The notes: generated from the letters alone by a model not told the origin. A DNA stretch of 64,000 bases from an uncultured Actinomycetes bacterium (GCA_963704885.1 CAVPIB010000007.1:160001-224000), one strand, 5' to 3'; counted from the stretch's first letter, positions 29,929 to 48,320 are shown. Numbers and translations: made by a program.

Positions 29929-30391
29929 TCGCGGTCGAGGCGTCGCTGGCGGACTCCGTGCAGGCGTCGAAACGGCATGCTCGTAGCCAGGTCAGGAGCT
30001 TGAGATGGGTGCCCAACGGGGGGGGCGAGCGCTTCCAGCGGTCGAGTGACGCTTGTAGCGCTGGGAGGAAGGCAGGCGGTTCATGTCCAGGCGAGGATCC
30101 GCACACGCTGAGGTGCTCACTGGATGCGCCGGCCGGTCGGCGCGATGCCCGTGGAGAACCATCGACGAGGGTAGAGCTGGCGCGAGATCCCGTAATAGCG
30201 GCACGTCCGGGGACGTGCCGGTCACCTCCTCGGCATGGCGAAGGATCGCCAGCCGCCTGAGCAGCTGCCGTGAGAGCTCTCAACTACAACCGGCCGCACG
30301 GCGGCCTCGGGGGTCAGACCCCGTATGAGAGGCTGAGGCAGAAGACGACGAGCCCGGTGTGAACGAACACCGTCAGTCGCACAGAGATGGG

Positions 30392-30464
30392 TGCCCTCGG
30401 CAGGAATCGGACCTGCGACACCCGGTTTAGGAAACCGGTGCTCTATCCACTGAGCTACGAGGGC
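30392..30464 (-). tRNA. tRNA-Arg(CCT)
   Basis: GCCCTCG acceptor stem, GCTC/GAGC D arm, CCGGT-TTCCTAA-ACCGG anticodon arm, GCAGG-TCCGATT-CCTGC T arm. Confidence 0.93.
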
Positions 30465-34531: not shown

Positions 34532-34822
34532 TTCACCGCGTGGAGCGTGAGCAGCACGAACCCCTCCTCGAACGTTGCCGGCACGGTCGTCGCTCCGGCG
34601 ATCGCCTCGGACATCGTCACCGACACCACGACCCGACCGCAAGCCATCTTCGGTCGGAGGTCTGGCGCCAGCAACTCGGGCGCTTGATCGGGGGGTGCTC
34701 CGACGCCCCTGCAGGGGAGTAGAACCCCAAGCACCCAGCGTCGAACGTCTCGTGATGGCCCCGGTGGCTGAGGTCCGGTCCTAGCCGTTCAGCTCCCGCC
34801 CTGGGTGAATGCGCCCTATAGG

Positions 34823-35416
34823 ATGTGGTCGTTGTCCGCCTATCTCGCGCTCTTCGCATCCTCGATCGGACCCGTGTCGCTGTTCCTGGCGTTGCTAGCC
34901 GTGCTCGCGCAGGTGAGCGTGCTCGTCGCCGTCGTGTTATGGGTGGCGGCGAGGTTCTCGGACGGTGCGGCCCGAACCAAGGCACGTCTCCTGGGCGCGA
35001 TCGGTCCATCGGCATCGTGGCTCGCCTGGGGGGTGGCACTCGTTTGCACCCTTGGCAGCCTCTACTACTCCGAGGTTGCCCACTTCGTTCCGTGCAAGCT
35101 CTGTTGGTACCAGCGGATCGCTATGTATCCGCTGGTGGTGGTGCTTGGCGTGGCGGCATGGCGCCAGCGAACCGAGATCGCTCGTGCCACCTTGCCTCTC
35201 GTCGCCATCGGCGCGGCGATCTCGACCTACCACTACCTGCTGGAGCGGTTCCCTTCGTTGGAGAGCGCTGCCAGTTGTGACCCCTCCGCGCCATGCACGG
35301 TGGTGTGGGTGTGGCGGTTCCACTACCTGTCGATCCCGGCCATGGCCCTGAGCGGCTTCGCGTTGATCGCCGTCCTCATCCTCATCGCGACCGACCCCGA
35401 CCCCGGAACGGAGTGA
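34823..35416 (+). CDS. dsbB: Disulfide bond formation protein B (BdbC/DsbB family)
   Basis: GSLYYSE...[14 protein letters not shown] and second Cys pair SCDPSAPC. Confidence 0.9.
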
Positions 35417-36075
35417 CCACGATGCCGTCAGCCAGCAAACGTCGAGCGATGGAGCGGGAGCACCGGCGACGTCAGATGCGCACCGTCGGTATCGCGGTGG
35501 CGGCTGTCGCCGCGGTCGCGATCGCGGCGATCGTGGTGAGCGCGCTCGGGGGTGAGGAGTCAACCGACCCCCGGGTCAGTCAGACAAGGCCCGTCACCGT
35601 AGCGGGCGAGCCGCTCCCGGCCTTCGGCGCGGAGCCAGATCCCGCCGTCGGGATGGCGGCGCCGGGCCTCGAAGGAGAGACGTTCGACGGTTCGCCGATC
35701 TCGATCACGCCAGGCCAGGGGCCGATGGCGATCTGGTTCGTGGCGCACTGGTGTCCGCACTGCCAAGCCGAGGTGCCCCGTATCGTCGCGCTCGCGGAAC
35801 AGGGCAAGCTCCCTGACGGTGTCCAGATCGCCGCGGTGTCCACGGGCGAAGATCCCGCCGGGCCCAACTACCCCCCGTCGGCCTGGCTCGAGGTCGAAGG
35901 GTGGCCCTTCCCCGTGCTGGCCGACGACGAGAACGGCACGGCCGCCACCGCATACGGGTTGGGGGGGTTCCCGTTCCTCGTACTGGTCGATGCCGACGGG
36001 AACGTCACGGCTCGCGCCTCAGGCGAATTGGGGGACGATGGCATCGTCGCCGCCCTGAACAGCCTGGCGGGCTAG
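35413..36075 (+). CDS. Membrane-anchored thioredoxin-fold oxidoreductase (CPHC, DsbA-like motif on a TlpA scaffold)
   Basis: N-terminal TM; WFVAHWCPHCQAEVP; cis-Pro loop GFP; GTGA overlap with dsbB. Confidence 0.88.
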   Translation: MTTMPSASKRRAMEREHRRRQMRTVGIAVAAVAAVAIAAIVVSALGGEESTDPRVSQTRPVTVAGEPLPAFGAEPDPAVGMAAPGLEGETFDGSPISITPGQGPMAIWFVAHWCPHCQAEVPRIVALAEQGKLPDGVQIAAVSTGEDPAGPNYPPSAWLEVEGWPFPVLADDENGTAATAYGLGGFPFLVLVDADGNVTARASGELGDDGIVAALNSLAG

Positions 36076-36125: not shown

Positions 36126-36151
36126 GGAATAGACCCGGGCTTTCCGGTGTC
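36126..36151 (+). promoter_or_regulatory. ECF-type promoter GGAATA-N16-TGTC
   Basis: Ends 9 nt before GTG 36161; variant of the local GGAATC-N16-CGTC motif. Confidence 0.55.
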
Positions 36152-36160
36152 CACACTGTT

Positions 36161-36733
36161 GTGAAGTCACCGCGGGCCTTCGCTGGCCTATCCTTGCTCG
36201 TCGGAGCCTTGGCCATGCTCGCGGCCGCGTGCTCGTCAGCGGCCGCTCCTATCGCCGATACGCCTTCGGCCACGAGAAGCACGCCGTCTCCTAGCGTAGC
36301 GGCCTCCGTCGCAGGTCCCGCCACGGTCCCCGAGGTGCTGGACTTCGAGGCTCCCGCTCTGGCCGGCGGGACCCTGAAGGGAGCCGACTACTCGGGCAAG
36401 GACCTCGCCATATGGTTCTGGGCGCCGTGGTGAACGACTTGTCAGGGGGAAGCCCCTGAAGTCGCGCGGGTCTCGCGCGCCTACGCAGGTCAGGTCGAGT
36501 TCCTCGGCATGGCGGGACGCGACTCGACCGACGCCATGCAGAGGTTCGTCGACAACTTCTCCCTGACGTTCCCGCAGGCTGTTTCCGAAGACGGCTCCTT
36601 ATGGGCGCGCTTCGGTGTCCCTTACCAGCCTGCCTGGGTCTTCGTGAACGACGACGGCCACGCTCAGGTCGTCTCCGGTGCGATCCCCGAGGACGATCTG
36701 AAGAAGATCCTCGATCAGCTGATCGCGGCTTAG
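36161..36733 (+). CDS. Selenocysteine-containing TlpA/redoxin lipoprotein (UxxC); TGA 36431-36433 read as Sec
   Basis: Lipobox LAAAC; IWFWAPW-TGA-TTCQGEAPEV continues in frame into ORF 36509-36733 (FGVPYQPAWVFVN); hairpin directly 3' of the TGA. Confidence 0.88.
36435..36464 (+). promoter_or_regulatory. Bacterial SECIS-like hairpin
   Basis: CGACT-(TG bulge)-TCAGGGG-[GAAG loop]-CCCCTGA-AGTCG, starting at the second base after the TGA. Confidence 0.8.
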
Positions 36734-36737
36734 CGTC

Positions 36738-37100
36738 CTACTCGGTCGACCCTCGGAACTCCAGGGCATAGGTCCACCGGGCTGGGTCTTCTGCGTGCTC
36801 GAAGCGCAGGAGCCTGCCCTCCTCGCCGCCGGGCAGGACGACGGGCAGTCCGACGTGCTCGTCCGTCGGCCACAACTCCTGCCTGACATCGTCCTCCAGC
36901 ACCAGGAGGGTCATCGGGTGTTCTCCATCTCGTTCGAGAGGTGGGTGCCAATCGTCGTCCTCGAGCCGCCGGACCCGGACGAAGCGGGGTACCGCGTGCA
37001 GGAGCACCGGCTCACCGGGAGACTTCCAGGCCTTACCGAAGAATCGCCAGCGCTCCCCATCCTTGGACGTCTCGATCACCCAACATTCCTCCGCACCCAT
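36738..37100 (-). CDS. Hypothetical protein, last gene of the tlpA-ccdA operon
   Basis: GGAGG RBS; Trp-rich 120 aa ORF directly after ccdA. Confidence 0.6.
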   Translation of the reverse strand: MGAEECWVIETSKDGERWRFFGKAWKSPGEPVLLHAVPRFVRVRRLEDDDWHPPLERDGEHPMTLLVLEDDVRQELWPTDEHVGLPVVLPGGEEGRLLRFEHAEDPARWTYALEFRGSTE

Positions 37101-37120
37101 GGGCCGCGGTCCTCCCTTCA

Positions 37121-37873
37121 TCACAGCGGGGGCTCGAAGTTGTTGACCAACCGAAGCACCGGCCCCATGACCTGGGTCCATAGACCAGAGATGAGCAACA
37201 CGCCGATCGAGACCATGATGACACCCGATACCAAGGAGATCGCCTCGTGGTGCCGCTTGAGTACGTCGAGGGCTCCCATCAGCCGGCCGACGCCCAGGCC
37301 GAGCAGGATGAACGGCAAGCCGAGGCCCATCGAGTACACGAACAGCAGCAACGATCCCCTTGCAGAGTTGCCCTGAACCGTGGCGAGCGCCAGCGTTCCG
37401 GCCAGGACCGGACCGATGCAAGGGGTCCATCCCGCGGCGAAGGCCATCCCCAAGGGATAGGCCGATGCGCGACCCGGGCGTAGCTTGGTCAGGAAGGGGC
37501 GCCTATCCGCATACAGCGCCGCCGTTCCGGCTCGGAGTCCCTGCAGGATCAAGATCATCCCGACGCCCGCCACCACGACTCCCGCGATCCGCTGCCCCGT
37601 CTGCGACCGAACGATGGGCACGAGCGTTCCCGCGAACGCACCCAGCGCGGTGAACACGGTGGCGAACCCCGCCACGAAGAACAGCATGGGTGCGATGTCG
37701 GGTCGCGTCGTCACACCGCTCGTTCCACCTACCGCCGCACGCGCTTGCGTGCCGGAGACGAACGAGAGATAGCCGGGCACGAGCGGCAACACGCATGGTG
37801 AGGCGAAAGAGACCACGCCCGCTGCGAACGCTATGAGTGGCGCCCACCAAGCCGTGAGATCGAAGACCGACAT
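37121..37873 (-). CDS. ccdA: Cytochrome c biogenesis / thiol-disulfide transporter CcdA
   Basis: AGVVSFASPCVLPLVPGYL and FAAGWTPCIGPVL; six TM segments. Confidence 0.93.
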   Translation of the reverse strand: MSVFDLTAWWAPLIAFAAGVVSFASPCVLPLVPGYLSFVSGTQARAAVGGTSGVTTRPDIAPMLFFVAGFATVFTALGAFAGTLVPIVRSQTGQRIAGVVVAGVGMILILQGLRAGTAALYADRRPFLTKLRPGRASAYPLGMAFAAGWTPCIGPVLAGTLALATVQGNSARGSLLLFVYSMGLGLPFILLGLGVGRLMGALDVLKRHHEAISLVSGVIMVSIGVLLISGLWTQVMGPVLRLVNNFEPPL

Positions 37874-37876
37874 CGG

Positions 37877-38500
37877 TCAGGCTGTGACGCCGAGATCGGT
37901 TTCGATCAGCTGCTCCAGGGACGCGGCGTCCAACCCACCGACCCAGACCTCGGCGATCTCCCCTCCGGGACGGATGAAGATCGTGGTCGGCATCCCCACC
38001 CCACCTGAGGCATTGAAGAAGACCCCGCTGCGGTCGATCGCTGTCGGATAGGTGATCCCGGTCTCCTTGGCGAGCGCGATGCTGGCGCTCGCGGCATCGC
38101 TCTGTGAGATCCCAAGGAAGGCGACCTGGTCACCAAGCTTCTTATGTACCTGCTCGAAGTCCGGCATCTCACCGATGCAGTTGGGGCACCACGACGCGAA
38201 GAAGTTGATAACGAGCGGCTTGTCGGCCAGCGTCGAGTACTCGACCGTGCCGCCCCCTTCGAGCGCCGGCAACTCCAAACTCTCCAGGGTCCCGCCGGTC
38301 CGGATATCCCCCGCGTAGGCGACTCCGCCGGCGCCGTTGCGGATCAGGAGGAAACCGATCCCCACGACGGCGATCAAGACCACGGCTGCGATACCCGCCG
38401 AGCGCAGTCGGGCCTTGTGACGGGCGTGCTTCGCTCGCCTCTCACGAGCTGCTCGCGCCTGTACATTCCTCTCGCCTTTGCTCGCGGCGCGCTCAGCCAC
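37877..38500 (-). CDS. TlpA/ResA-like membrane-anchored disulfide reductase
   Basis: PLVINFFASWCPNCIGEMP, GMPTTIFI; AGGAGG RBS before GTG 38500. Confidence 0.9.
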   Translation of the reverse strand: MAERAASKGERNVQARAARERRAKHARHKARLRSAGIAAVVLIAVVGIGFLLIRNGAGGVAYAGDIRTGGTLESLELPALEGGGTVEYSTLADKPLVINFFASWCPNCIGEMPDFEQVHKKLGDQVAFLGISQSDAASASIALAKETGITYPTAIDRSGVFFNASGGVGMPTTIFIRPGGEIAEVWVGGLDAASLEQLIETDLGVTA

Positions 38501-38564
38501 CCGTCCTCCTGTCGGTCGGGGTTTCCTCGCATGGCCGCGGTCACCCCGCGGCCTCAGCATGTCC

Positions 38565-38626
38565 GACGCCCGTGGACACCGCGCGATTCCGCACCTAGGG
38601 GGAATCTTCGAACAGGGAGCGGCGTC
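38565..38626. promoter_or_regulatory. Back-to-back ECF-type promoters, both GGAATC-N16-CGTC
   Basis: Minus strand 38590->38565 toward tlpA-ccdA; plus strand 38601->38626 toward DUF3179. Confidence 0.75.
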
Positions 38627-38663
38627 CCAAGAGAAAGATGTTCATGCCAGGGAGTCAGCGCCG

Positions 38664-39815
38664 ATGAGGATCGGGCGCATCGCCGCGCTGATAGCGGCGC
38701 TCGCGGTCTTCGCCGCAGCTTGCAGCGGCGGAGCCACCCGCTCGCCGGATGCCGGTGAAAGCGCCTCCGCATCCGATAGCTCGTCGGAGGGAGTGACGCC
38801 ACCGCTCATCGATCTCGACGACATCATCTCCGGCGGTCCTCCGCCCGACGGCATCCCGCCGATCGACGACCCGAAGTTCCTGGCGCCTGAAGACGTCACG
38901 TTCCTGGTTCCCCAGGAACCAGTGATCGCGGTCGAGGTCGAGGGTGTGGCGAAGGCGTACCCGATCCGCATCCTGATGTGGCACGAGATCGTGAACGACG
39001 TCTTCGACGGCACGCCCGTCGTAGTGACGTACTGCCCTCTATGTAACACGGGGATCGCATACCTCCGCCCAACCATCGACGGAGAGCTCCTCGACTTCGG
39101 GACCAGCGGAAAGCTCTACAACTCGAACCTGATCATGTACGACCGCCAGACCAACTCTTACTGGCCCCAGGCGATGGGTAAGGCGGTCGTCGGGCCACTC
39201 ACGGGTGAGGAGTTGGAGTTCGTGCCGGCTCGGATCCTGTCGTGGGGGGACTGGTTGCTGGCCTACCCCGACGGGTTCGTGCTCTCGACCGACACGGGGG
39301 TGTCTCGGACGTACGGGAGCAATCCGTACGCCGGGTACGACCACGAATCGGTCCCATTCCTGTTCGCCGGCGAAACCGACCCACGGCTTCGCGCTAAGGA
39401 GCACATCCTGGGGATCGCCGGCGAGGGCGGCGCGATCGCGTTCCCGTTTTCCGAGCTCGCGAGTCGGGCGACGGGTGGCGCGACCGTGGTTCAAGGTTCG
39501 TTCGGCGGCCCGCGCCTGGTGGTCTTCTGGCAGGCGGGAACGGTGTCCGCTCTTGACGCGGCAGAGATCCCCGAGTCAGAGGATGTGGGTGCCGCCGCTG
39601 CGTACGTCCCCGTCGTCGATGGGCAGCGCCTGACTTTCGAGGTGCAAGGCGGGCGCTTCGTAGACCAGCAGACGGGGTCGGTGTGGTCGATCGACGGCCG
39701 CGCGCTCACCGGTCAGCTGGCGGGTTCCCGGCTCGAGGTGGCCTTGGCTATCGATAGCTTCTGGTTCGACTGGGCAGCCTTCCATCCTGAAACGGAGATA
39801 TTCGGACAGGCGTGA
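38664..39815 (+). CDS. DUF3179 domain lipoprotein (CxxC form)
   Basis: Lipobox FAAAC; GGPPPDGIPPIDDP, WHEIVND, TYCPLCNTG, SGKLYNSNLIMYDRQT, FWFDWAAFHP. Confidence 0.88.
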   Translation: MRIGRIAALIAALAVFAAACSGGATRSPDAGESASASDSSSEGVTPPLIDLDDIISGGPPPDGIPPIDDPKFLAPEDVTFLVPQEPVIAVEVEGVAKAYPIRILMWHEIVNDVFDGTPVVVTYCPLCNTGIAYLRPTIDGELLDFGTSGKLYNSNLIMYDRQTNSYWPQAMGKAVVGPLTGEELEFVPARILSWGDWLLAYPDGFVLSTDTGVSRTYGSNPYAGYDHESVPFLFAGETDPRLRAKEHILGIAGEGGAIAFPFSELASRATGGATVVQGSFGGPRLVVFWQAGTVSALDAAEIPESEDVGAAAAYVPVVDGQRLTFEVQGGRFVDQQTGSVWSIDGRALTGQLAGSRLEVALAIDSFWFDWAAFHPETEIFGQA

Positions 39816-39872
39816 ATGCGGTCATCCGGTTCGATGGTGGCGAGGTCACTCGCGTGGTTGTCGGCTCGCCCC

Positions 39873-40541
39873 TCAGCCGTCGATATCCAGGATCTGGTCG
39901 ACGACTTCGTCGAGATCGCGGCCGACCACGTCGGGGGGACCGACGAGAGGCGCCCACGTCTGGCCTGGGCGTGCGACGAACGCTGCCGCCCACCCCGCAC
40001 TCTTCGCCCCGATAACGTCCCAGTCGTGCGCCGCCACGAGCCGAAGCGCCTCCGGCGCGACACCCAACCGCTCCGAGGCCATCAGGTAGGCCTCGGGCGC
40101 CGGCTTGAATCGCCCAACGGTCTCTACGGAGAGCACGGGATCGAGCAGATCCTCCAGACCTGCGTGCGAGAGTTGAGCGTCGGCGACCGCGGCGGTGGAG
40201 TTCGTCAGAGCACAGGTGTGGAACCCGGCGCTCCGCAGCCGCCGGATGGCTGCGGGCACTTCGGGATGCGCGGGCAGCTCGCGCATCTTGCCGAGCAGCC
40301 GCTCCAGCGCGGGCCCGTCCAGATGTCGGCCGCGGCGGTCGGCGACCGCCAGGAGCGCGGCCCGACCCACCTGCCCGAAGTCGCTGTCCAGGCCCGTGAG
40401 CGTGGCCACGAGCGACAGGTGGAGCATGCGAGCGAACCACTCACGGAGTGCGTCGTCATCGCCGAGGGCTTCGGCGAACGGCTCTCGCATGACAGATAGG
40501 TCCAGCAGCGTCTGGTTCACGTCGAACACGATCGTCCTCAT
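39873..40541 (-). CDS. Haloacid dehalogenase type II
   Basis: IVFDVNQTLLD, LTNS, FKP, VAAHDWDVIGA. Confidence 0.9.
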   Translation of the reverse strand: MRTIVFDVNQTLLDLSVMREPFAEALGDDDALREWFARMLHLSLVATLTGLDSDFGQVGRAALLAVADRRGRHLDGPALERLLGKMRELPAHPEVPAAIRRLRSAGFHTCALTNSTAAVADAQLSHAGLEDLLDPVLSVETVGRFKPAPEAYLMASERLGVAPEALRLVAAHDWDVIGAKSAGWAAAFVARPGQTWAPLVGPPDVVGRDLDEVVDQILDIDG

Positions 40542-40585
40542 GGGATGCCTCCCGTGCGCTTCCTTCCAGACGATATGCAGGTCGG

Positions 40586-41794
40586 TCAGGCGCCGACCGC
40601 GGCGTCCGCCTTGTCCATGAAAGCCCGGATCTGCAGCGCCACCGCCGCACCTTCTCCAACCGCCGATGCGAGCTGCTTCGTCGATCCCGCTCGGACGTCG
40701 CCGGCCGCGAACACACCCCGCGCGGAAGTCATCAGCGTGGATGGATCGGTGACGACGAATCCCCACTGGTCGAGCTCGATCTGACCTCGCAGGAACTCGG
40801 TGTTCGGATCCAGCCCGACGAAGATGAACGCGGCAGCCGGATCGAACTCCTTGAGCGCTCCCGTCGCGCGATCTTCGACGATCACGGTCCCGAGCTTGCC
40901 TCCGTCCGTCGCCTTGAACTCCTTGACCGCGTGCGAAGTGAGGACGTCCATCCTCGGATGAGACCGCACCCGGTCCTGCAGGATCTTGGAAGCCTTCAGC
41001 GTGTCGGCGAACTCGATCACTGTCACGTGATCGGTGAACTGCGTGAGGAAGAGCCCCTCTTCTAGGCCCGAGTTACCGCCGCCGACCACCATCAGCTCCT
41101 TCGAGCCCTTGTAGAACGGCCCGTCACACGTCGAGCAGAAGTGGATGCCCCCGCCGATCAACTCTTCTTCTCCGGGGGCGCCTGTGCGCCGGTACGACGA
41201 CCCGGTCGCGACCAGCACGGCACGGGCTTCGTAGTGGTCGCCGGTAGCGGTCATCACAGCGAGGCAGGTCTCGTCGAGATGCGAGATCGACGTAACGCTC
41301 ACGGCCTGCAGCATCTCCACGCCGTAGCGCTCCGCCTGCTCGACGAACCGATCGGCGAGCTCCGCCCCCCCGATGCCCTCGGGGAAGCCCGGGTAGTTGT
41401 CCAGGCGCTCCGTTACGCCGGCCTGTCCGCCCAGGCCCTTGGAGTCGATGACCAGGGTCTCGAGGTCCTCGCGCGCCGAGTAGATGGAGGTGGTCAGGCC
41501 GGTCGGGCCCCCGCCGATGATGATCAGGTCGTAGATGTGCATGCTCGCGACCCGGGAGATCCCGAGCTTGTCCGCCAGCTCTTCGTTCGAAGGCTCTGAC
41601 AGATGGGACCCGTCCGGGAACACGATCGTTGGGATCACGTTGTTCCCGTCGTTGCGCTCCTGCACGATGCGCTGACCCTCGGGTTCGACGCCGATGTCGT
41701 GCCATTCGAACGGGACACGCTGGTCGGCCAGGAACTTCTTCGAACGCTTGCAGTCGGGGCACCAGTCGGCGCCGTAGAGCTTGATGTCGGCCAT
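40586..41794 (-). CDS. trxB: Glutaredoxin/mycoredoxin-like domain fused to thioredoxin reductase
   Basis: YGADWCPDC...IPTIVFPDG, then IIGGGPTG, HFCSTCDG, VGGGNSG, GVFAAGD. Confidence 0.9.
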   Translation of the reverse strand: MADIKLYGADWCPDCKRSKKFLADQRVPFEWHDIGVEPEGQRIVQERNDGNNVIPTIVFPDGSHLSEPSNEELADKLGISRVASMHIYDLIIIGGGPTGLTTSIYSAREDLETLVIDSKGLGGQAGVTERLDNYPGFPEGIGGAELADRFVEQAERYGVEMLQAVSVTSISHLDETCLAVMTATGDHYEARAVLVATGSSYRRTGAPGEEELIGGGIHFCSTCDGPFYKGSKELMVVGGGNSGLEEGLFLTQFTDHVTVIEFADTLKASKILQDRVRSHPRMDVLTSHAVKEFKATDGGKLGTVIVEDRATGALKEFDPAAAFIFVGLDPNTEFLRGQIELDQWGFVVTDPSTLMTSARGVFAAGDVRAGSTKQLASAVGEGAAVALQIRAFMDKADAAVGA

Positions 41795-41849
41795 CGATGG
41801 ACTCCTTACCGTGGATGCGAGTGGGCGCGTCCGGTCTCGTACCTAGGGG

Positions 41850-41875
41850 AACGCTCAGCGATCACGTGCGATTCC
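41850..41875 (-). promoter_or_regulatory. ECF-type promoter GGAATC-N16-CGTT (SigH/SigR-like GGAAT-N18-GTT)
   Basis: Located 55 nt upstream of the Grx-TrxB start. Confidence 0.65.
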
Positions 41876-42460
41876 ATCGACGCGCCCCCGGCGTTGTGCC
41901 ATCTTCTCGGCCGACATCTGCAGGCCAGCCAGGGAGGTCTCCACGGTGCGCTCCCAGTGTCGGGCAACGACCCGTCCCCAAAGAGCGCCGATCGCCCAGC
42001 CGTCGGTTCCCATCTCACCCGTGTATTCGAGCTGCGTGCCGCTGCCGTCGTCGACCTCCGTCAGGACGAACCGCTCGGTCACGGACGGAACGGGGCCGCG
42101 GACCAGCCGGAACCCGATGCGCTCGGGGCGGTCGAACGAAACCGTCTCGACCGTGACCGCCGTCAGCCCGCCGGCCTTCGTGCGATGCGCGGCAAGCACC
42201 AGATCCGCGCCGGCGTCTAGGACCTCGACCTTCTCCCGTAGCGCTCGAGGCGGGTTCTTCGATAGATAGGGAACGGCGACGAGGTCGAAGACCGTCTCTC
42301 TCGGCGCTCCGATCTTCACGACCTGGGGCCCGAGCGGGCGGGTCCGTCGTCCGAGGCCCGTATCGAGCGTGAGCCTGCCTGTGGCAACGAGCACGAAGGT
42401 CACTCCGGCGGCGATCACCGCCAGGACGCCCAACAGGACGAGCGCGATGACCCAGCTCAT
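41855..42460 (-). CDS. SRPBCC (polyketide cyclase/dehydrase-like) protein with N-terminal TM
   Basis: VKIGAPRETVFD, ETVSFDRPERIGFRLVRGP, TQLEYTGE. Confidence 0.75.
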   Translation of the reverse strand: MSWVIALVLLGVLAVIAAGVTFVLVATGRLTLDTGLGRRTRPLGPQVVKIGAPRETVFDLVAVPYLSKNPPRALREKVEVLDAGADLVLAAHRTKAGGLTAVTVETVSFDRPERIGFRLVRGPVPSVTERFVLTEVDDGSGTQLEYTGEMGTDGWAIGALWGRVVARHWERTVETSLAGLQMSAEKMAQRRGRVDGIARDR

Positions 42461-42636
42461 CGGCCCCTCACGATGAACCAGATCCACAAGGGGACCGTGA
42501 GCAGCTGGAGCTTCTGTGCCCAACAGGTGTCACGCCACCAGGCCCGGAGCCCAGGCTCCCGCTCGGAAGTCGAGCACGACGAGGAACGGCGATCGTCGCG
42601 CGCCCGCGTTGCTCGGTCAGGTTCTTCGAGAGTCAT
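42457..42636 (-). CDS. Small Trp-rich membrane peptide (59 aa), below the ORF-track cutoff
   Basis: MTLEEPDR...AWWRDTCWAQKLQLLTVPLWIWFIVRGR*; ATGA overlap with the SRPBCC start. Confidence 0.55.
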   Translation of the reverse strand: MTLEEPDRATRARDDRRSSSCSTSEREPGLRAWWRDTCWAQKLQLLTVPLWIWFIVRGR

Positions 42637-42714
42637 GAGTTCAGCCTAAGGGACGCCGGGAGGTCGCCCGGATCTCCCACGTGATCACCATGCCCGGTTG
42701 ATCGGATGATGAAG

Positions 42715-42740
42715 GGAATCATCGCTGCCTTCGCTGCGTC
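42715..42740 (+). promoter_or_regulatory. ECF autoregulatory promoter GGAATC-N16-CGTC
   Basis: Directly upstream of the GGAGG RBS and ATG of the ECF sigma gene. Confidence 0.75.
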
Positions 42741-42759
42741 TTGTTGATGGAGGAGGCAG

Positions 42760-43287
42760 ATGGGTACCGAACACGACGCATTCCTGCGAGCCACGATGGG
42801 TTGTATGGACCTGGTCTACAACATCGCCAGGCGCATGGTCTTCTCGGCCGAGGATGCTGAGGACCTGGTGCAGGAGACCTATCTGGCGGCCTTCCGCGCC
42901 TGGGAGGACGAGCGCCGTCCGGACAAGGTGGAGCCGTGGATGGCGACGATCTGCCTGAATCTAGGGCGGTCTCTCTATCGGCGGCGTGCTCGTCGGCCCC
43001 AGGAGGTGCCCCTGGAAGCTCGCCTGCTGGTGTTGCCCGACCAGGCCGACCCGGAGCGCGAGGCGCTGGCGTCGCTCGATCGCGACGCGCTGCACAGAGC
43101 GATGTGGCAGCTCCCCGAGGAGCAGTGCACCGCGCTCACCCTGGTGGACCTCGGAGGTCTCAGCACGGCCGAGGCCGCGTCGGTGATGGCGACGCCCCGG
43201 GGAACCGTGCTCTCGCGCCTGCACCGAGGGCGCCGGGCCCTCGCGCTGCTATTGGCTGACGAAGTACCTGACCGGGAGGTGACGTGA
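42760..43287 (+). CDS. ECF RNA polymerase sigma factor
   Basis: DAEDLVQETYLAAFRAW (region 2), EAASVMATPRGTVLSRLHRGR (region 4). Confidence 0.93.
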   Translation: MGTEHDAFLRATMGCMDLVYNIARRMVFSAEDAEDLVQETYLAAFRAWEDERRPDKVEPWMATICLNLGRSLYRRRARRPQEVPLEARLLVLPDQADPEREALASLDRDALHRAMWQLPEEQCTALTLVDLGGLSTAEAASVMATPRGTVLSRLHRGRRALALLLADEVPDREVT

Positions 43288-43610
43288 TGAGCCGAGACCG
43301 ATCCGACACCGAGGTCGACATCCGGCGTGCGCACGACCCTGACGTGAACGCCTCGGTCTACGTGGCAGGAGAACTGTCCCGCCGTGTCGCTCGATGGTTC
43401 GAGCATCATCTCCTCGAGTGCGACGACTGCTGGCGAGAGGTCTGGCTCGCTCGAAGAGGCCGGTTCGTCGCCGAGCACGCCCGCGAGCTCGCGCCCGCCT
43501 CGCTGAGGGACGCGGTGCGTGGAGCGATCCAGCTCTCGTCCGTAGCCTCCGAGGGAACGGGCCGTCGACGCTGGGCCTGGTTCCGTAGGCGCCCGACGGG
43601 ACGAGGATGA
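43284..43610 (+). CDS. Zinc-binding (zf-HC2/ZAS) anti-sigma factor, soluble
   Basis: YVAGEL...FEHHLLECDDC (HxxxCxxC); overlaps the sigma stop; no TM. Confidence 0.85.
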   Translation: MMSRDRSDTEVDIRRAHDPDVNASVYVAGELSRRVARWFEHHLLECDDCWREVWLARRGRFVAEHARELAPASLRDAVRGAIQLSSVASEGTGRRRWAWFRRRPTGRG

Positions 43611-43999
43611 CCCCGCCGGACGGCACCATGGGGATCGGATCGAGCGACGCGGTCGGCCACCAGATCGACGGTGGTCGCCCTCCGGTGATCGCCGGTCTCC
43701 TCGGCGGGGCGATCGGGGCGGTGTGCTGCATAGGTCCAGCCGTAGGGGTGGCCATCGGGGCGAGCTCAGGGTCCTTCCTGATAGGGCTGAGCCGGTATCG
43801 TCCGGCGACGTTCGCTCTGGGGGCGGTGTTCGCCGCAGGAGCGGTGTGGCTCCAACTCCGCAGGCGCAGGGCCTCGTGTCCGACGCCTCAGTCGTTCCGA
43901 GTGCTCAGGAGTCGCTGGATCGACGTTTCCTTACTGGCGTTCGTGCTGACCTATGCGATCGGCCGGTTCGTGGTGCCGCCGCTCATCGAGCGTCTGTGA
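43607..43999 (+). CDS. MerT-like three-TM metal-transport protein
   Basis: AVCCIGP vicinal Cys in TM1, YRP before TM2, RRRASC loop. Confidence 0.65.
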   Translation: MTPPDGTMGIGSSDAVGHQIDGGRPPVIAGLLGGAIGAVCCIGPAVGVAIGASSGSFLIGLSRYRPATFALGAVFAAGAVWLQLRRRRASCPTPQSFRVLRSRWIDVSLLAFVLTYAIGRFVVPPLIERL

Positions 44000-44103: not shown

Positions 44104-44220
44104 AGAAGGACGAGCGCTATGGCGGCGGCTGCGACCAGCGAGCCCCGCGCAGCAGGCGATGATCGGCGCCATCGAACATGAGATCGCTGCGTCCTCGCGG
44201 GCTGCTCAGCAGCATGCAGG

Positions 44221-45351
44221 TCAGCCGGTGATTGCGACGCCGAGCAGACTACCGATGCCGTAGGTGAGCCCGGCGGCGGCGAGCCCGAGCACCGCCTGAC
44301 GGAGCCCCGAACGCCATGGGCCCCGGCCGGTCACGAGGGTGATGGCCGCCCCGGTTCCGAACAGGGCGAGGCTCGCCAGGGAGAGGCTGGTGAGCACCGC
44401 GGTGGCCCCGCTCGTGAATAGGAACGGGATCACGGGGATGATGGCGCCGAGGGCGAAGAGGACGAACGAGGCAGTGGCGGCTTCCCACGGGGAACCGCCC
44501 AGCTCGTCGGGGTCGATGCCGAGCTCCTCCCGTGCCAGGGTGTCGAGCGCCGTGTCGTGGTCGGCCATGACCCGGGCCGCCAACTGGCGGGCCTGGGCCT
44601 CGGGCAGCCCCTTGGCCTGGTAGATCAGGGCGAGCTCCTCTTCCTCCTCCTCGGGGAACTCCTCGATCTCGCGAGCTTCGATGTCGATCTGGCGTTGGTA
44701 CAGCTCGCGGGAGGATTGCACCGAGAGCCATTCGCCGAGGGCCATGGACGACGCCCCGGCGAGGAGGCCGGCGAACCCGGCGATCAGCACCGCCTGGTTC
44801 GAGATGTCGGCGCCGGCCACACCCATCACCAGAGCGAGGTTCGACACGAGCCCGTCGTTGGCGCCCAGCACGGCGGCACGTAGCGCGTTGCCGCCGATCG
44901 TCCGGTGGCGTCCCTCGAGCCTTGCCAACGCACCGCCCTCGACGCCGCCGTTACCGCTCGTGAGCGTGCGCAACAGTCGGGCGTGAGACCGTTCGTCGGC
45001 AGGCATCGAGGTGCCGTCGGTCTCGGGCTGGTCGTCGTACATGAACTGGCCCGTCTGCTCCTCCCTCGCCAACGTGGACGCCAGCACGCCCGGTCCGAGC
45101 CGGCGCGCGGACCAGGCCAGGATGCGGGCGCGTCGGGTCGGCGTCCGGGGCGGAACCGGTTGGCCTGCGGCGCGGATCTTGTCCTCCCAGAACGAGGCGT
45201 GTCGTTCTTCCGTGGCCGCGAGGCGCTCGTACAGCTCGGCCAGCTGCGGCTGGTCCTCGAGCTCGGCCAGCGCCCGGTACTGGAACGCCCCGTCGGTCTC
45301 TTCCTGGATGTTCTCGCGGTAGCGGGCGATGTCGTCGCGATCCGCCTTCAT
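44221..45351 (-). CDS. VIT1/CCC1 family transporter with ferritin/rubrerythrin-like N-terminal domain
   Basis: EERH and DERSH motifs; LRAAVLGANDGLVS, AGASSMALGEWLSV, REELG. Confidence 0.9.
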   Translation of the reverse strand: MKADRDDIARYRENIQEETDGAFQYRALAELEDQPQLAELYERLAATEERHASFWEDKIRAAGQPVPPRTPTRRARILAWSARRLGPGVLASTLAREEQTGQFMYDDQPETDGTSMPADERSHARLLRTLTSGNGGVEGGALARLEGRHRTIGGNALRAAVLGANDGLVSNLALVMGVAGADISNQAVLIAGFAGLLAGASSMALGEWLSVQSSRELYQRQIDIEAREIEEFPEEEEEELALIYQAKGLPEAQARQLAARVMADHDTALDTLAREELGIDPDELGGSPWEAATASFVLFALGAIIPVIPFLFTSGATAVLTSLSLASLALFGTGAAITLVTGRGPWRSGLRQAVLGLAAAGLTYGIGSLLGVAITG

Positions 45352-45989
45352 CCCGTCGGTTCCTTCCTTCTGGTCGGGCGCCGGGCGGGTTGGGCCTGCC
45401 CGAACCCTCTTTCGAGGAGTCCCAAGCCCTCTTCCACCGTCGTGCGGGGGTCCGAGGCGCCGCCGGATCCCACCCACAGGCGCATCGCAGCGCGCAGCGC
45501 CCCGAGTGCGGCCCCGGCCACGACGCGAGGTCGTGGATCGAGGTCGGCGTCCACACCGAGACGTGTGGCGACCTCGCGGGCTATGGCGTCCTCGTAGGCC
45601 GCTTGCAGTTCGAGGCTCCTCGCCAACACCGAGGGCTCCGTGGAGACGATCCGGGCGCGAACCGATCCCTCGGCGGGGTCGGCCGCGACCTCACCCACCA
45701 TCGCCAACACCGCGCGGCGGACAGGTGCGGTGACCGGCTCGTCGGGTGGACCGGCTGCGAGCGCGTCGCGGATCGCCGCGAGGCGGCGCTCGTGGTCGGC
45801 TAGGGCCGCGTCCTCCTTCGTCGCGAAGTATCGGAAGAACGTGCGCGGTGAGACGTCGGCGGCCGCCGCGATCTCGTCGACCGTCGTCTCGCGGAAGCCG
45901 CGCTCGGCGAACAGACGGAGCGCGGCGGACGCGATCGCCTTGCGCGTTCGGAGCTTCTTCCGCTCCCGCAAGCCCTGCTCCGCGACCAT
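45348..45989 (-). CDS. TetR family regulator (MftR-like)
   Basis: GLRERKKLRTR..AALRLFAERGF..TTVDEIAAAADVSPRTFFRYF. Confidence 0.93.
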   Translation of the reverse strand: MVAEQGLRERKKLRTRKAIASAALRLFAERGFRETTVDEIAAAADVSPRTFFRYFATKEDAALADHERRLAAIRDALAAGPPDEPVTAPVRRAVLAMVGEVAADPAEGSVRARIVSTEPSVLARSLELQAAYEDAIAREVATRLGVDADLDPRPRVVAGAALGALRAAMRLWVGSGGASDPRTTVEEGLGLLERGFGQAQPARRPTRRKEPTG

Positions 45990-46065: not shown

Positions 46066-46109
46066 GATCCCAAGTGACCCGAGTGGCCGCGAGAAGAAGG
46101 GAGCGCCAC

Positions 46110-48320
46110 ATGTCGTTGTCAGGGGCCCTTTACCGCCTGGGGCGAGGGTCGGTGCGTCGGCGTCGGCTCGTCGTGGCCGTCTGGATAGTGTCGGCGGTGG
46201 GGATGCTGCTTACCGGGCGTGCCCTGGGCGCGAGCTCGGTGGACGACTTCCGGGTGCCCGGGACTGAATCCCAGCAGGCGCTTGACCTGTTGAGGGAGCG
46301 GTTCCCCGCGGCCTCCGGCACCGAGGCCACCGTGGTGTTCCATATAGCCACGGGCACGGCACGCGACGCCCAGAACGTCGTGCTGATCGGCGAGACGCTC
46401 AGCCAGGTCGCGCGACTTCCGCACGTGCTTGGTGTGGAGAGCCCCGTGGCCGACTCCACCCCATCGGGTCGGGCGGGTGTGTCCGCAGACGGGACGATCG
46501 CCTTCGCGACGGTCCACTACGACTCCGACGCGTCGGCACTCGGTATCCGGGCCGTCGATGCGCTCGAGGAGGCCGTTGGCCCGGCTCGCGAAGCCGGGAT
46601 GCAGACGGAGCTCGGTGGCGCGCTGCTGCAATCGGTCGACCGGGCGGAACCGAAATCCTCAGAGCTGTTCGGCTTGGTGGCCGCGGTGCTGGTGTTGCTG
46701 CTGGCGTTCGGGTCAGTGGTCGCGATGGGGCTGCCGATCGGCACCGCGATCCTCGGCCTGCTCACCGGCATGTCGGTCGTGAAGCTCGTGAGCCTGTTCG
46801 TCGACATGCCCACTGTGGCGCCGACGCTCGCGACGATGATCGGGTTGGGCGTGGGGATCGACTACGCCCTGTTCATCGTCACACGACACCGCGAGTACCT
46901 CCATGCAGGACTCACGGTCGAGGAGGCCGCCGGTCGCGCGATCGCGACCTCGGGCCAGGCGGTCGTGGTCGCCGGTGCCACCGTTGTGATCGCGATCTTG
47001 GGCCTATGGATCTCGGGGATCCCGTTCGTCGGCCTCCTCGGAACCGCATCGGCGATCGTCGTGACCGTGGCGGTGCTCGCCGCCATCACGGCGCTGCCCG
47101 CGCTGCTCGGGTTCGCCGGGCAGGCGATCGATCGTCTCCGCGTCCCGCGGTTCGGCCGTCGGTCCTCCAACGCCGAAGCGTCGCCGGGTTGGCGGCGGTT
47201 CGGTCGCCACGTGGTCGACCAACCTTGGCGTCACCTGGCGCTCAGCCTCGCGATCCTCGGCGCGCTGGCGGTTCCCCTGTTCTCGATGCGGCTAGGCCAG
47301 GTGGACGCGGGGACGGCCTCGGCCGAGACTACCCAGCGCCGCGCCTTCGACCTCATGACGCAGGGCTTCGGACCGGGCTTCAACGGTCCACTGCTGTTGA
47401 CCGTCGAGGGCGCCGACGCGGCAACCCTGGGATCGATCGGCGTTGCTGTGGCTGCCGACCCCGACGTCGTCGCGGTGAAGCCGCCGATGGCGAGCCCCGA
47501 CGGAACGACCGCCGTCATCACCGTCGTCCCGGGGTCCTCGCCGCAGAGCGAGGCAACTACCGAGTTGGTGTCGCGCCTCCGCGATCAGGTGCTGCCCGGC
47601 GTCGTCGAGGGAACCGACGCGCAGGTCTTCGTCGGCGGCCAGACCGCCACCTATGTCGACCTGGCGGCGAAGGTCGGTGACGCCCTTCCGCTGTTCATCG
47701 GCGCGGTCGTGCTGCTTTCGTTCGTGTTGCTGACCGTGGTCTTCCGCTCGATCCTCGTGCCGCTCAAGGCCGCCCTGATGAACCTGCTGTCGATCGGCGC
47801 CGCATACGGCGTGGTCGTCGCTATCTTCCAGTGGGGGTGGGGCAAAGGTCTCGTCGGCCTCGAGGAGACGGTCCCGATCGTCTCGTTCGTGCCGATGATG
47901 ATGTTCGCGATCCTGTTCGGCCTCTCGATGGACTACGAGGTGTTCCTGCTCTCGCGGATCCGCGAGGAGTACGTGCAACGGCGCGACAACGCGGAGAGCA
48001 TCGTGACCGGGTTGGCATCGACAGCGAGGGTTATCACCTCGGCCGCCCTCATCATGATCGCCGTGTTCCTCTCCTTCCTGTTGAACGACGACCCGACCGT
48101 GAAGATGGTGGGCATCGGACTGGCGACCGCGGTGGCCGTGGATGCCACGATCGTCAGGATGATCTTGGTGCCCTCGACGATGGCGTTGCTCGGTGACGCG
48201 AACTGGTGGCTGCCCCGGTGGCTCGACCGCCTGCTACCGAGGATCGACATCGAGGGCGAGGCCGGACTTCCTCTTGGAAGCGAGGCACGGGTAACCGGAG
48301 CTACAGTCGAGGTCGTTTGA
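46110..48320 (+). CDS. MmpL/RND family transporter
   Basis: GLGVGIDYALFIVTRHRE, GFGPGFNGPL, LFGLSMDYEVFLLSRIREE. Confidence 0.95.
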   Translation: MSLSGALYRLGRGSVRRRRLVVAVWIVSAVGMLLTGRALGASSVDDFRVPGTESQQALDLLRERFPAASGTEATVVFHIATGTARDAQNVVLIGETLSQVARLPHVLGVESPVADSTPSGRAGVSADGTIAFATVHYDSDASALGIRAVDALEEAVGPAREAGMQTELGGALLQSVDRAEPKSSELFGLVAAVLVLLLAFGSVVAMGLPIGTAILGLLTGMSVVKLVSLFVDMPTVAPTLATMIGLGVGIDYALFIVTRHREYLHAGLTVEEAAGRAIATSGQAVVVAGATVVIAILGLWISGIPFVGLLGTASAIVVTVAVLAAITALPALLGFAGQAIDRLRVPRFGRRSSNAEASPGWRRFGRHVVDQPWRHLALSLAILGALAVPLFSMRLGQVDAGTASAETTQRRAFDLMTQGFGPGFNGPLLLTVEGADAATLGSIGVAVAADPDVVAVKPPMASPDGTTAVITVVPGSSPQSEATTELVSRLRDQVLPGVVEGTDAQVFVGGQTATYVDLAAKVGDALPLFIGAVVLLSFVLLTVVFRSILVPLKAALMNLLSIGAAYGVVVAIFQWGWGKGLVGLEETVPIVSFVPMMMFAILFGLSMDYEVFLLSRIREEYVQRRDNAESIVTGLASTARVITSAALIMIAVFLSFLLNDDPTVKMVGIGLATAVAVDATIVRMILVPSTMALLGDANWWLPRWLDRLLPRIDIEGEAGLPLGSEARVTGATVEVV

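Follow-up and report, generated by a model that had tools for sequence, protein, structure and literature searches.

Two pairs of regulators, SigR-RsrA in Streptomyces and SigH-RshA in Mycobacterium and Corynebacterium, combine an extracytoplasmic function (ECF) sigma factor with a co-transcribed anti-sigma factor bearing an HxxxCxxC motif, an autoregulated promoter and thiol-redox targets, and their promoters carry a GGAAT -35 element separated by an 18-nucleotide (nt) gap from GT(T/C). In RsrA, the N-terminal cysteine C11 pairs with the CxxC of this motif. The CcdA-TlpA/ResA/Etrx systems constitute extracytoplasmic reducing pathways, in which CcdA is found beside membrane-anchored TlpA-like thioredoxins. 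Here we examine a locus that resembles both, located in a 64,000-nt stretch of DNA from an uncultured Actinomycetes bacterium (GCA_963704885.1 CAVPIB010000007.1:160001-224000; G000:C7:160001-224000, about 66-70% G+C), hereafter the window. Our best explanation, which we hold to be probable, is that a local ECF sigma factor and its anti-sigma factor govern, through promoters with a GTC -10 element, their own operon, the gene of a DUF3179 lipoprotein and a divergent tlpA2-ccdA-DUF7712 unit. This reading is carried by the promoter sites and their genome-wide ranking, by their conservation, by gene linkage, and by a contrast between GTC and GTT elements. Most likely, the locus holds a second SigH-related stress sigma factor and a zinc anti-sigma factor beside their likely targets, an outward thiol-reducing pathway and a redox lipoprotein.

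The candidate promoter sites and the genes at the centre of the argument are listed below by window position (aa, amino acids). The gene table was compiled from an open reading frame (ORF) listing and family scans.

36126-36151, plus strand: candidate weak promoter before the selenoprotein gene, GGAATA-N16-TGTC; matrix score 13.5, in the noise zone.
36738-37079, minus strand: small DUF7712 protein, last gene of the tlpA2-ccdA unit; PF24822 at 52.4 bits, homologues at loci L033 and L039.
37121-37873, minus strand: CcdA (DsbD transmembrane domain); PF02683 at 45.3 bits against a cut-off of 27.1.
37877-38560, minus strand: TlpA2, a TlpA/ResA-like membrane-anchored thioredoxin with WCPNC; AhpC-TSA, Redoxin and Thioredoxin families.
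38565-38590, minus strand: predicted tlpA2-ccdA promoter, GGAATC-N16-(G)CGTC, back to back with the DUF3179 promoter; exact match, matrix score 23.0.
38601-38626, plus strand: predicted DUF3179 promoter, GGGAATC-N16-(G)CGTCC; exact match, matrix score 23.0, joint first genome-wide.
38664-39815, plus strand: DUF3179 lipoprotein with an invariant C124-P-L-C127; PF11376 at 338.9 bits against a cut-off of 27.
41850-41875, minus strand: predicted grx-trxB promoter, GGAATC-N16-CGTT, with a SigH-type -10; exact match, matrix score 17.9.
42652-42677, minus strand: GGAGAT-N16-CGTC before the small ORF/SRPBCC unit, unsupported as a site; matrix score 8.1.
42715-42740, plus strand: predicted promoter of the sigma operon, GGGAATC-N16-(G)CGTC; exact match, matrix score 21.7, rank 4 genome-wide.
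42760-43287, plus strand: ECF sigma factor, 175 aa; Sigma70_r2 and r4_2.
43284-43610, plus strand: anti-sigma factor with HxxxCxxC, 108 aa; zf-HC2.
43607-43999, plus strand: MerT-like membrane protein with a CC pair; PF02411, sub-threshold.

A previous sequence-only reading of the window had placed one bipartite motif before most of these transcription units, and all six of its instances are found at the positions given above. Four of them, before the sigma, DUF3179, tlpA2-ccdA and grx-trxB genes, proved to be real signals, whereas the selenoprotein instance is borderline and the one before the small ORF/SRPBCC unit is noise. This division comes from a weight matrix trained on 27 promoter-position sites, all from other genomes (lowest training score 15.3), with which both strands of the 3.0-Mb genome were scanned; the four sites rank 1, 2, 4 and 6 in the whole genome (23.0, 23.0, 21.7 and 17.9). 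The sites ranked third and fifth are located within gene calls, the third in an ORF resembling a membrane transporter (named by eye), the whole-genome calls being those of a crude caller based on G+C at third codon positions (GC3; 2770 genes, 89% coverage). The selenoprotein site stands at about rank 25, level with the trxA site and beneath the lowest training score, and 122 genome positions score at least 10, compared with 8.1 for the GGAGAT site, so that neither appears separable from background by sequence alone.

The placement of the motif points the same way. GGAATC-N16-CGT[CT] occurs 13 times on the two strands of the genome, and four of these occurrences lie within 4.2 kb here, intergenic and facing gene starts, where about 0.02 would be expected under a uniform spread (our own arithmetic). 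Only these four and one before a thioredoxin gene (C1:186490) are in promoter position. Among the other eight, six lie within gene calls; C7:1481 overlaps a gene-call start; C19:74759 and C4:675132 lie between genes, the next gene call being 5.7 kb away for the former and 533 nt away for the latter. What stands above chance is thus the placement and conservation of the motif, not its count in the window. The C of the GTC element in ECF promoters sits near -10, and transcripts are predicted to start at about 42750, 38636, 38555 and 41840.

Between 30 and 50 kb of the window, a score of at least 7 was reached only by the six sites already named and by three places within coding ORFs (7.5-8.1), namely 37515-37539 in ccdA, 43525-43549 in the anti-sigma gene, and 44169-44193. 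The last (plus strand, 7.8) was rejected as a promoter of the VIT1 gene, which lies on the minus strand, the site being beyond its 3' end and pointing into the gene. In this span, no site scoring at least 7 precedes dsbB-tlpA1 or the genes of the TetR regulator and the MMPL protein, and the proposal that a wider metal island is wired into the regulon found no support, no credible site having been found upstream of these genes or of VIT1. Other candidates set aside were the high-scoring C4:423849, inside a membrane-transporter-like ORF (named by eye) and treated as chance; C1:416198, with GCATCC as its -10 and no gene call downstream; and a plus-strand motif at C4:668663, which is antisense within rshA and reflects coding sequence. 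The 9-mer CCCCTAGGT has two copies in the window (0.15 expected), of which that at 38593-38601 lies in the space separating the divergent -35 elements and that at 41841-41849 (minus strand) just past the grx-trxB -10. It was rejected as an operator, since its 7 genome copies, 6 of them intergenic, share no common context, and the repeats are probably due to chance or to CTAG avoidance in coding DNA.

The case for the upstream element as a working, autoregulatory promoter rests mainly on its conservation in genomes that have diverged. The sigma factor was searched in 150 genomes of the same order, and 29 of these hold a best match of 51-82% identity (E <= 1e-47), the rest being at SigH level (36-42%, E about 1e-17 to 1e-27); no orthologue was found in any of the five congeners. 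At 27 of 30 loci of sigma orthologues, G[GC]AATC-N15-17-NGTC lies at most 150 nt upstream, and the GTT form at none. Six of these 27 loci come from unpublished genomes (L017, L024, L026, L027, L028, L030), and their removal leaves 21 of 24. Of the three loci missing the motif, two have another gene in front of sigma, which in L004 itself bears the motif. Upstream of orthologues at 42-56% identity, the element reads GCAATCA-N15/16-GCGTC. Among the matches listed in public species genomes, relatives of at least 45% identity occur only in Acidimicrobiales, Acidimicrobiaceae, Actinomycetes or Actinomycetota records, and the clade appears confined to Acidimicrobiales-type genomes among those matches. 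One genome (G119; L034, L035, L036) carries three sigma copies, 66-72% identical to that of the window, at least two of them with long anti-sigma factors.

Gene linkage was examined at 20 loci of at most 20 kb each from 17 genomes (L031-L050); this synteny set, the matrix and the control scans used published genomes only. The arrangement recurs in relatives: sigma and anti-sigma genes are repeatedly found beside those of DUF3179, TlpA2, CcdA, SRPBCC, Grx-TrxB, HAD-II and DUF7712 proteins, in variable order. The core of the sequence-only reading, a local and apparently autoregulated ECF sigma factor with a zinc-finger anti-sigma factor, stands, with the same promoter type before DUF3179 and tlpA2-ccdA. 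TlpA2 orthologues adjoin sigma in 10 of the 20 loci, and CcdA orthologues lie behind a sigma-type promoter in L039 and L042. A DUF3179 protein at least 50% identical to that of the window is encoded at 13 loci (two of them, L044 and L045, are close relatives and represent one event), with the site directly upstream in 7 and probable in 4 more, where it lies inside an over-long gene call, acts via the tlpA operon, or is about 330 nt upstream. Across the genomes searched, 24 of the 29 with sigma also encode DUF3179, versus 15 of 121 without sigma; these counts partly rest on unpublished genomes (G028, G032, G050, G053, G074, G076, G015, G040), and with published genomes only they become 18 of 23 versus 13 of 114. 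Promoter-position sites before non-sigma genes in other genomes end in CGTC in 17 of 19 cases and in CGTT in two. An apparent anti-sigma/SRPBCC fusion in L033 was discarded as a gene-caller artefact, the two reading frames being different (by eye).

Sigma-type promoters elsewhere also precede genes of DUF1684, cupredoxin-like, DUF7482, radical-SAM (S-adenosylmethionine) plus methyltransferase, and MerT-like proteins, as well as those of a molybdopterin oxidoreductase domain protein and of DUF6789/DUF1440 membrane proteins. In three loci (L039:2617-7716, L042:2601-7733, L045:14737-18263), such a promoter drives divergent units, one with DUF1684, cupredoxin-like and DUF7482 genes, the other with a radical-SAM protein (HMPTM zinc ribbon), a SAM methyltransferase and a small protein, once headed by a MerT-like gene. 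None of these families was found among the scanned island genes at 34.8-46 kb, the rest of the genome not having been searched. A type II haloacid dehalogenase (HAD-II) recurs in the regulon, behind grx-trxB in the window (39873-40556) and behind tlpA in the sigma operon at L039:11329-12006 and L042:11321-12019; haloacetates alkylate thiols, and one may speculate that the regulon also answers to electrophiles. In G033, a fragmented congener in which no sigma orthologue was detected, small contigs (C127, C140, C190, C219) hold stretches with 80-82% identity to the genes of the selenoprotein and of CcdA, as well as one exact GGAATC-N15-GCGTC; this may be a partly assembled copy of the island. 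The literature that we found contains no link of an ECF sigma factor to DUF3179, TlpA or CcdA, the catalogues of ECF groups, in which the clade may be numbered, lying outside the search; what it reports on DUF3179 includes nothing on its regulation.

The local sigma factor contains only regions 2 and 4 of sigma-70 (Sigma70_r2, 54.4 bits; r4_2, 48.8 bits), as is typical of ECF (group 4) sigma factors, and scores 73.1 bits with TIGR02937, over the cut-off of 42.9; 22 matches in the genome exceed the cut-off of the sigma-70/ECF superfamily model. With the SigH model TIGR02947, it reaches 97.4 and 93.6 bits in two scans, under the cut-off of 251.55. Its own promoter matches that of SigH/SigR (GGAAT-N18-19-GTT) in -35 and spacing but has GTC as -10. 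The SigH of this genome lies at C4:668719-669279 (TIGR02947, 269.8 bits), followed by a canonical RshA with an N-terminal Cys and HxxxCxxC; the local factor is the second-best SigH match in the genome. Because the true SigH is found elsewhere, the local gene scores 93.6 bits and the two proteins are 37% identical, the local sigma factor is a SigH relative from a paralogous clade rather than a SigH orthologue. Its gene and those of the anti-sigma factor and the MerT-like protein overlap start-on-stop (GTGA, ATGA; the anti-sigma start is GTG, the MerT-like start ATG), and they thus form one operon with the MerT-like gene in third position.

The anti-sigma factor, encoded directly downstream of sigma, contains HHLLECDDC and matches zf-HC2 with 27.0 bits (cut-off 22.2), as expected for a zinc-binding anti-sigma (ZAS) domain. 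Its proposed assignment to the RsrA/RshA type was not borne out, as it scores 23.9 bits with TIGR03988 against a cut-off of 62.5 and has a His instead of the N-terminal Cys. In an alignment of this protein with 15 neighbours of sigma orthologues, HxxxCxxCW is kept in all 16 with an invariant CxxC, and the His of an HDPE motif is conserved wherever the N-terminus is present; a Cys before HxxxCxxC, which the RshA of this genome does have, is found in none of the 16. The conserved His and HxxxCxxC, with no third Cys, point to His-His-Cys-Cys as candidate zinc ligands. A ligand set of this kind is that of the ChrR or RslA type. Seven of the 16 proteins are long, at 206-256 aa (the one of 206 aa is truncated by the end of its contig), and each combines a hydrophobic stretch with a C-terminal part devoid of Pfam matches; long forms of 225-276 aa are also found in more distant loci. 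The anti-sigma factor of the window is short and has no hydrophobic stretch. The MerT-like protein falls short of both MerT models (PF02411, 25.0 bits against 32.9; NF010314, 26.8 against 150) and seems to resemble MerT only in its CC-bearing first helix; its homologue in L045 has its own sigma-type promoter.

The mechanism that we propose runs as follows. The operon at 42760-43999 would encode a SigH-paralogous ECF sigma factor, a cytoplasmic zinc-finger anti-sigma factor and a MerT-like membrane protein. Thiol-oxidising or thiophilic stress, the inducing signal that we infer, would disturb the His/His/Cys/Cys zinc site of the anti-sigma factor and free sigma, which would read G(G/C)AATC-N16-(G)CGTC(C) and drive three units, namely the operon to which it belongs, the gene of the DUF3179 lipoprotein and the divergent unit tlpA2-ccdA-DUF7712, and possibly also the selenocysteine (Sec) TlpA-like gene from a weak promoter of leaderless type. 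The freed sigma factor would thereby amplify itself and raise a relay that carries electrons outward from a reductase in the cytoplasm via CcdA to TlpA; within this relay, CcdA would pass reducing power to TlpA2, keeping the CxxC of DUF3179, and perhaps the selenoprotein, reduced. The housekeeping SigH would use the same -35 and spacing with a GTT -10, so that the two regulons would be separated mainly by one -10 base. The grx-trxB/HAD unit, with CGTT, would be read by SigH or by both sigma factors, and the cytoplasmic Grx-TrxB fusion may feed CcdA.

Several observations weigh against this account or parts of it, and they are given here together with the alternatives on which they bear. The strongest of these, a real possibility although we place it below an even chance, accepts the wiring as proposed and disputes the signal: the zinc site would be structural, and the cue a metal, envelope damage or a partner protein. 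ZAS proteins with a His-His-Cys-Cys ligand set are not all redox sensors, ChrR being an example, and the CxxC provides the only Cys pair of the local anti-sigma factor, so that redox sensing through it is possible and not implied by family membership. Also in keeping with another signal are the absence of an RsrA-kind N-terminal Cys from the whole anti-sigma family, the long membrane-spanning forms in relatives, the MerT-like gene, and the cupredoxin-like, MerT-like and molybdopterin-oxidoreductase proteins among the regulon members elsewhere. Against this, the short anti-sigma factor of the window, devoid of a hydrophobic stretch, implies that something cytoplasmic is sensed, its CxxC is invariant in the family alignment, and the core targets are thiol-disulfide proteins. 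The whole chain from NADPH through Grx-TrxB, CcdA and TlpA to DUF3179 would be reasonable in the light of what is known of these families.

A second alternative, which we consider improbable, is that all sites are ordinary SigH promoters, SigH/RshA driving every unit of the island, the gene of the local sigma factor among them, in a cascade like that from SigH to sigM in Corynebacterium, and the targets of the local sigma factor lying elsewhere. The published SigH consensus, as it appears in the text available of PMC10012870, is GGAAT-N18-19-GTT, and the GGGAATC -35 and 16-nt spacer of the local sites match the trxA promoters of genomes that lack the local sigma factor (GGGAATC-N16-GGTT in five of five congeners). 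With the same -35 and spacing, cross-recognition by SigH would be possible; overlap between related ECF sigma factors is documented in Corynebacterium in the portions consulted of PMC10012870 and PMC6338062, the latter of which also states that SigH drives transcription of another ECF gene.

The evidence against this alternative lies mainly in the -10 element. In sigma-bearing genomes, trxA keeps a GTT -10 in four of five cases, the fifth being without the motif, and in the genome of the window GGAATG-N16-NGGTT precedes dnaK and two further genes (pirin-like and DUF385-like, by eye). The GTC form at the sigma-orthologue loci, where GTT never occurs, contrasts with this, as do the orthologues of 42-56% identity, whose GCAATC -35 departs from the SigH consensus while GCGTC is kept. 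Exact GGAATC-N15-GCGTC gives three scattered hits in the five congeners without sigma and 16 in five genomes with sigma, where 12 fall at the sigma locus; the genome of the window has four, three of them local, and a control with the reversed pattern never exceeded one hit on either strand of a genome. Furthermore, none of eight DUF3179 loci examined in sigma-lacking genomes has a CGTC-type site upstream; one of them (G025) carries GGAATC-N16-GGTT, and another a weak GGAAGC...CGTT with a score of 13.3. In the simplest reading, GTC would mark promoters of the local sigma factor and GTT those of SigH. By this rule, the sigma, DUF3179 and tlpA2-ccdA promoters would belong to the local factor, and grx-trxB, with CGTT as in trxA, to SigH or to both. 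The earlier reading had allowed that the promoters might answer only to a separate SigH; such a SigH/RshA pair does exist, but its promoters end in GTT and the local ones in GTC. Its inclusion of grx-trxB in the local regulon holds only in part, since the site is present with a score of 17.9 and is SigH-type or dual, not clearly local. The only other Grx-TrxB-containing operon with the motif, in L045, also has CGTT, and the Grx-TrxB orthologues in L033 and L042 lack the motif. A TGA inside trxA of G017 proved to be simply a stop codon. Outside the window, an identical SigH-type promoter precedes the same 137-aa gene at the same distance on two contigs (G000:C15:18083-18108 and G000:C7:240572-240597), a case of duplication or of assembly redundancy.

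Other adverse points concern the motif and the comparison as such. Counted over the window, GGAAT-N17-CGT gives four matches versus a shuffle mean of 1.59, and 9 of 100 shuffles reach four, which is not significant; with one mismatch allowed there are 11 matches versus an expectation of 9.79, a number equalled or exceeded by 39 of 100 shuffles with at least 11. As a comparison with background, this falls within chance, while the genome-wide ranks and the four sites within 4.2 kb do not. No site was seen in two of the 13 loci with DUF3179 adjoining sigma (L038 and L050), and DUF3179 itself was not seen in 5 of the 29 sigma-bearing genomes. The compared genomes are related by kinship and not independent, many assemblies are incomplete and the counts carry no test statistic; start-codon distances are approximate because of the crude gene caller, and we infer the start sites and the sigma dependence of the promoters from the DNA itself. 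That the motif matches are mere coincidences in G+C-rich intergenic DNA is nevertheless hardly credible, because the window count that would suit such a view is contradicted by the independent matrix ranking, by conservation upstream of orthologues, by clustering at the sigma locus elsewhere, and by the intergenic position of the sites facing gene starts.

In addition to the invariant C124-P-L-C127, DUF3179 has H107 nearby. Selenoprotein forms of DUF3179 with UxxC/T are listed in the review tables consulted of PMC9312934 and PMC13188914, which argues that its CxxC may be redox-active. An AlphaFold model (mean predicted local distance difference test 84.9, predicted template modelling score 0.82) gave no Foldseek match at E<=0.001, and a sequence search for solved DUF3179 structures returned only a chance match (E 0.72). 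With VIA, the top 40 rows for the model are nearly all Rieske proteins at Z 4.7-7.8, a range (Z <8) common among unrelated folds, covering residues of about 93-194 or 252-375. Rieske clusters are ligated by CxH...CxxH; the sequence here has H107 and C124xxC127 in place of that pattern, and two Rieske-like beta domains in DUF3179 can be taken as a lead only. A wider scenario, which we regard as rather unlikely in its entirety, is that a duplicate of SigH split the thiol-stress response into a cytoplasmic branch (SigH, GTT) and an extracytoplasmic branch (the new sigma factor, GTC), separated by one -10 base and, in distant relatives, also by the GCAATC -35; DUF3179, with two Rieske-like domains and CxxC (UxxC in some organisms), would then be the main effector and represent a new class of redox enzymes of the envelope, with a CcdA-TlpA relay dedicated to keeping it reduced.

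The remaining genes of the region, with the same sources except where indicated, are as follows.

34805-35416, plus strand: DsbB-like protein; ORF listing and family scans.
35419-36075, plus strand: TlpA-like protein with WCPHC (tlpA1); ORF listing and family scans.
36161-36733, plus strand: TlpA-like lipoprotein (the selenoprotein), with in-frame UGA at 36431-36433 and W-U-T-T-C; read-through translation and thioredoxin-family matches.
39873-40556, minus strand: haloacid dehalogenase type II (HAD-II), downstream of grx-trxB; TIGR01428 at 166.4 bits against a cut-off of 125.4.
40586-41794, minus strand: glutaredoxin/mycoredoxin-like domain fused to a thioredoxin-reductase-like flavoprotein (Grx-TrxB); Glutaredoxin and Pyr_redox_2.
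41855-42523, minus strand: membrane-anchored SRPBCC protein; Polyketide_cyc2 at 34.1 bits.
44221-45477, minus strand: VIT1 family (iron/manganese transporter); family scan.
45348-45989, minus strand: TetR-family regulator; ORF listing and family scans.
46074-48320, plus strand: MMPL; named by eye, outside the family scan.

The selenoprotein has its UGA at the first Cys position, W-U-T-T-C aligning with the WCxxC of TlpA proteins, and 3 nt past the UGA a hairpin at 36436-36463 folds with -26.4 kcal/mol (z -2.5; 5 of 200 shuffles as good). Of the Sec machinery, tRNA-Sec (C1:490473-490567) and SelB (321.3 bits versus 242.25) were searched for and are present; with the in-frame UGA and the hairpin, the gene thus has the features of a bacterial selenoprotein. 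An in-frame GTG at 36161 lies exactly 10 nt past the -10 C (36151), which fits a leaderless start, and in L071 a Cys-containing homologue (40% identity) follows directly after the anti-sigma gene, so that the weak site before this gene is plausible, not established. The ATG of TlpA2 at 38560 is only 5 nt past the -10, and the start is therefore more likely to be the GTG at 38500, which follows GGAGGA. The DsbB-like and WCPHC TlpA-like genes (34805-36075), just left of the selenoprotein, resemble an oxidising pair beside a reducing module.

Grx-TrxB scores 292.4 bits with TIGR01292 (TrxB), under the cut-off of 343.45, and is apparently a TrxR-like flavoprotein that carries an extra glutaredoxin/mycoredoxin-like domain at its N-terminus. 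The SRPBCC protein is a conserved neighbour of sigma (homologues in L033, L039, L041, L042 and L047), and the matrix scan identified no sigma-type promoter upstream of its gene. The VIT1 protein carries an N-terminal rubrerythrin/ferritin-like domain. Between 30 and 50 kb, the DNA that congeners share with the window comprises only the MMPL gene, CcdA paralogues and one genome's Grx-TrxB homologue, to which one fragmented congener adds stretches of about 80% identity to the genes of the selenoprotein and of CcdA; because so little is shared, the region is accessory. Some 4 kb to the left of this accessory region lies a tRNA-Arg(CCT) gene (30390-30464, minus strand); the congeners have it with 100% conservation, but at a distance from their MMPL homologue.

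For an ECF sigma factor from uncultured bacteria of Acidimicrobiales type, the analysis thus provides a concrete promoter code together with a short list of targets. It connects the widespread DUF3179 family, whose function is unknown and which includes selenoprotein forms, with the CcdA-TlpA pathway and a stress regulator, and so makes the function of the family testable. The two related sigma factors, with a common -35 and differing -10 elements (GTC versus GTT), constitute a natural pair relevant to the study and engineering of orthogonal ECF switches.

The system works like SigR-RsrA/SigH-RshA and SigM, with an autoregulated ECF sigma factor, a zinc anti-sigma factor and thiol-redox genes, and is no new kind of regulation. 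It differs from SigH in that the local sigma factor remains far below the model cut-off (93.6-97.4 bits versus 251.55) in a genome that has its own SigH/RshA, and in its GTC -10; from RsrA in that the anti-sigma factor lacks the N-terminal Cys and falls under the model cut-off; and from SigR/SigH in general in that the regulon is small, local and mostly extracytoplasmic. The ChrR and RslA zinc anti-sigma factors share the N-terminal His and HxxxCxxC without a third Cys, a likeness drawn from their ligand sets, and differ from the local protein, which has no cupin or other C-terminal domain. SigM of Corynebacterium glutamicum, according to the text available of PMC6338062, is a disulfide-stress ECF sigma factor under SigH control; it too is a second SigH-related factor with a subset of disulfide-stress genes and near-identical promoters, and the NCBIfam SigM model is the second-best match of the local sigma factor (88.7 bits, under the cut-off of 190), whereas the local targets are TlpA, CcdA and DUF3179 and not cytoplasmic trx genes. 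Neisseria meningitidis sigmaE-MseR and Haemophilus RpoE2, as far as general background and the portions consulted of PMC2893595, PMC3240639 and PMC7907618 describe them, likewise combine a small ECF regulon with a zinc anti-sigma factor and the repair of oxidised envelope proteins by msrAB; they are set apart, by these descriptions and not by sequence, through another phylum and ECF group and MsrAB instead of DUF3179 as target. With the CcdA-TlpA/ResA/Etrx pathways, finally, the locus has in common CcdA beside membrane-anchored TlpA-like thioredoxins, and it differs from them in the suggested client, which would be DUF3179 rather than cytochrome c maturation or Msr, and in the dedicated ECF sigma factor that is predicted to stand over the pathway.

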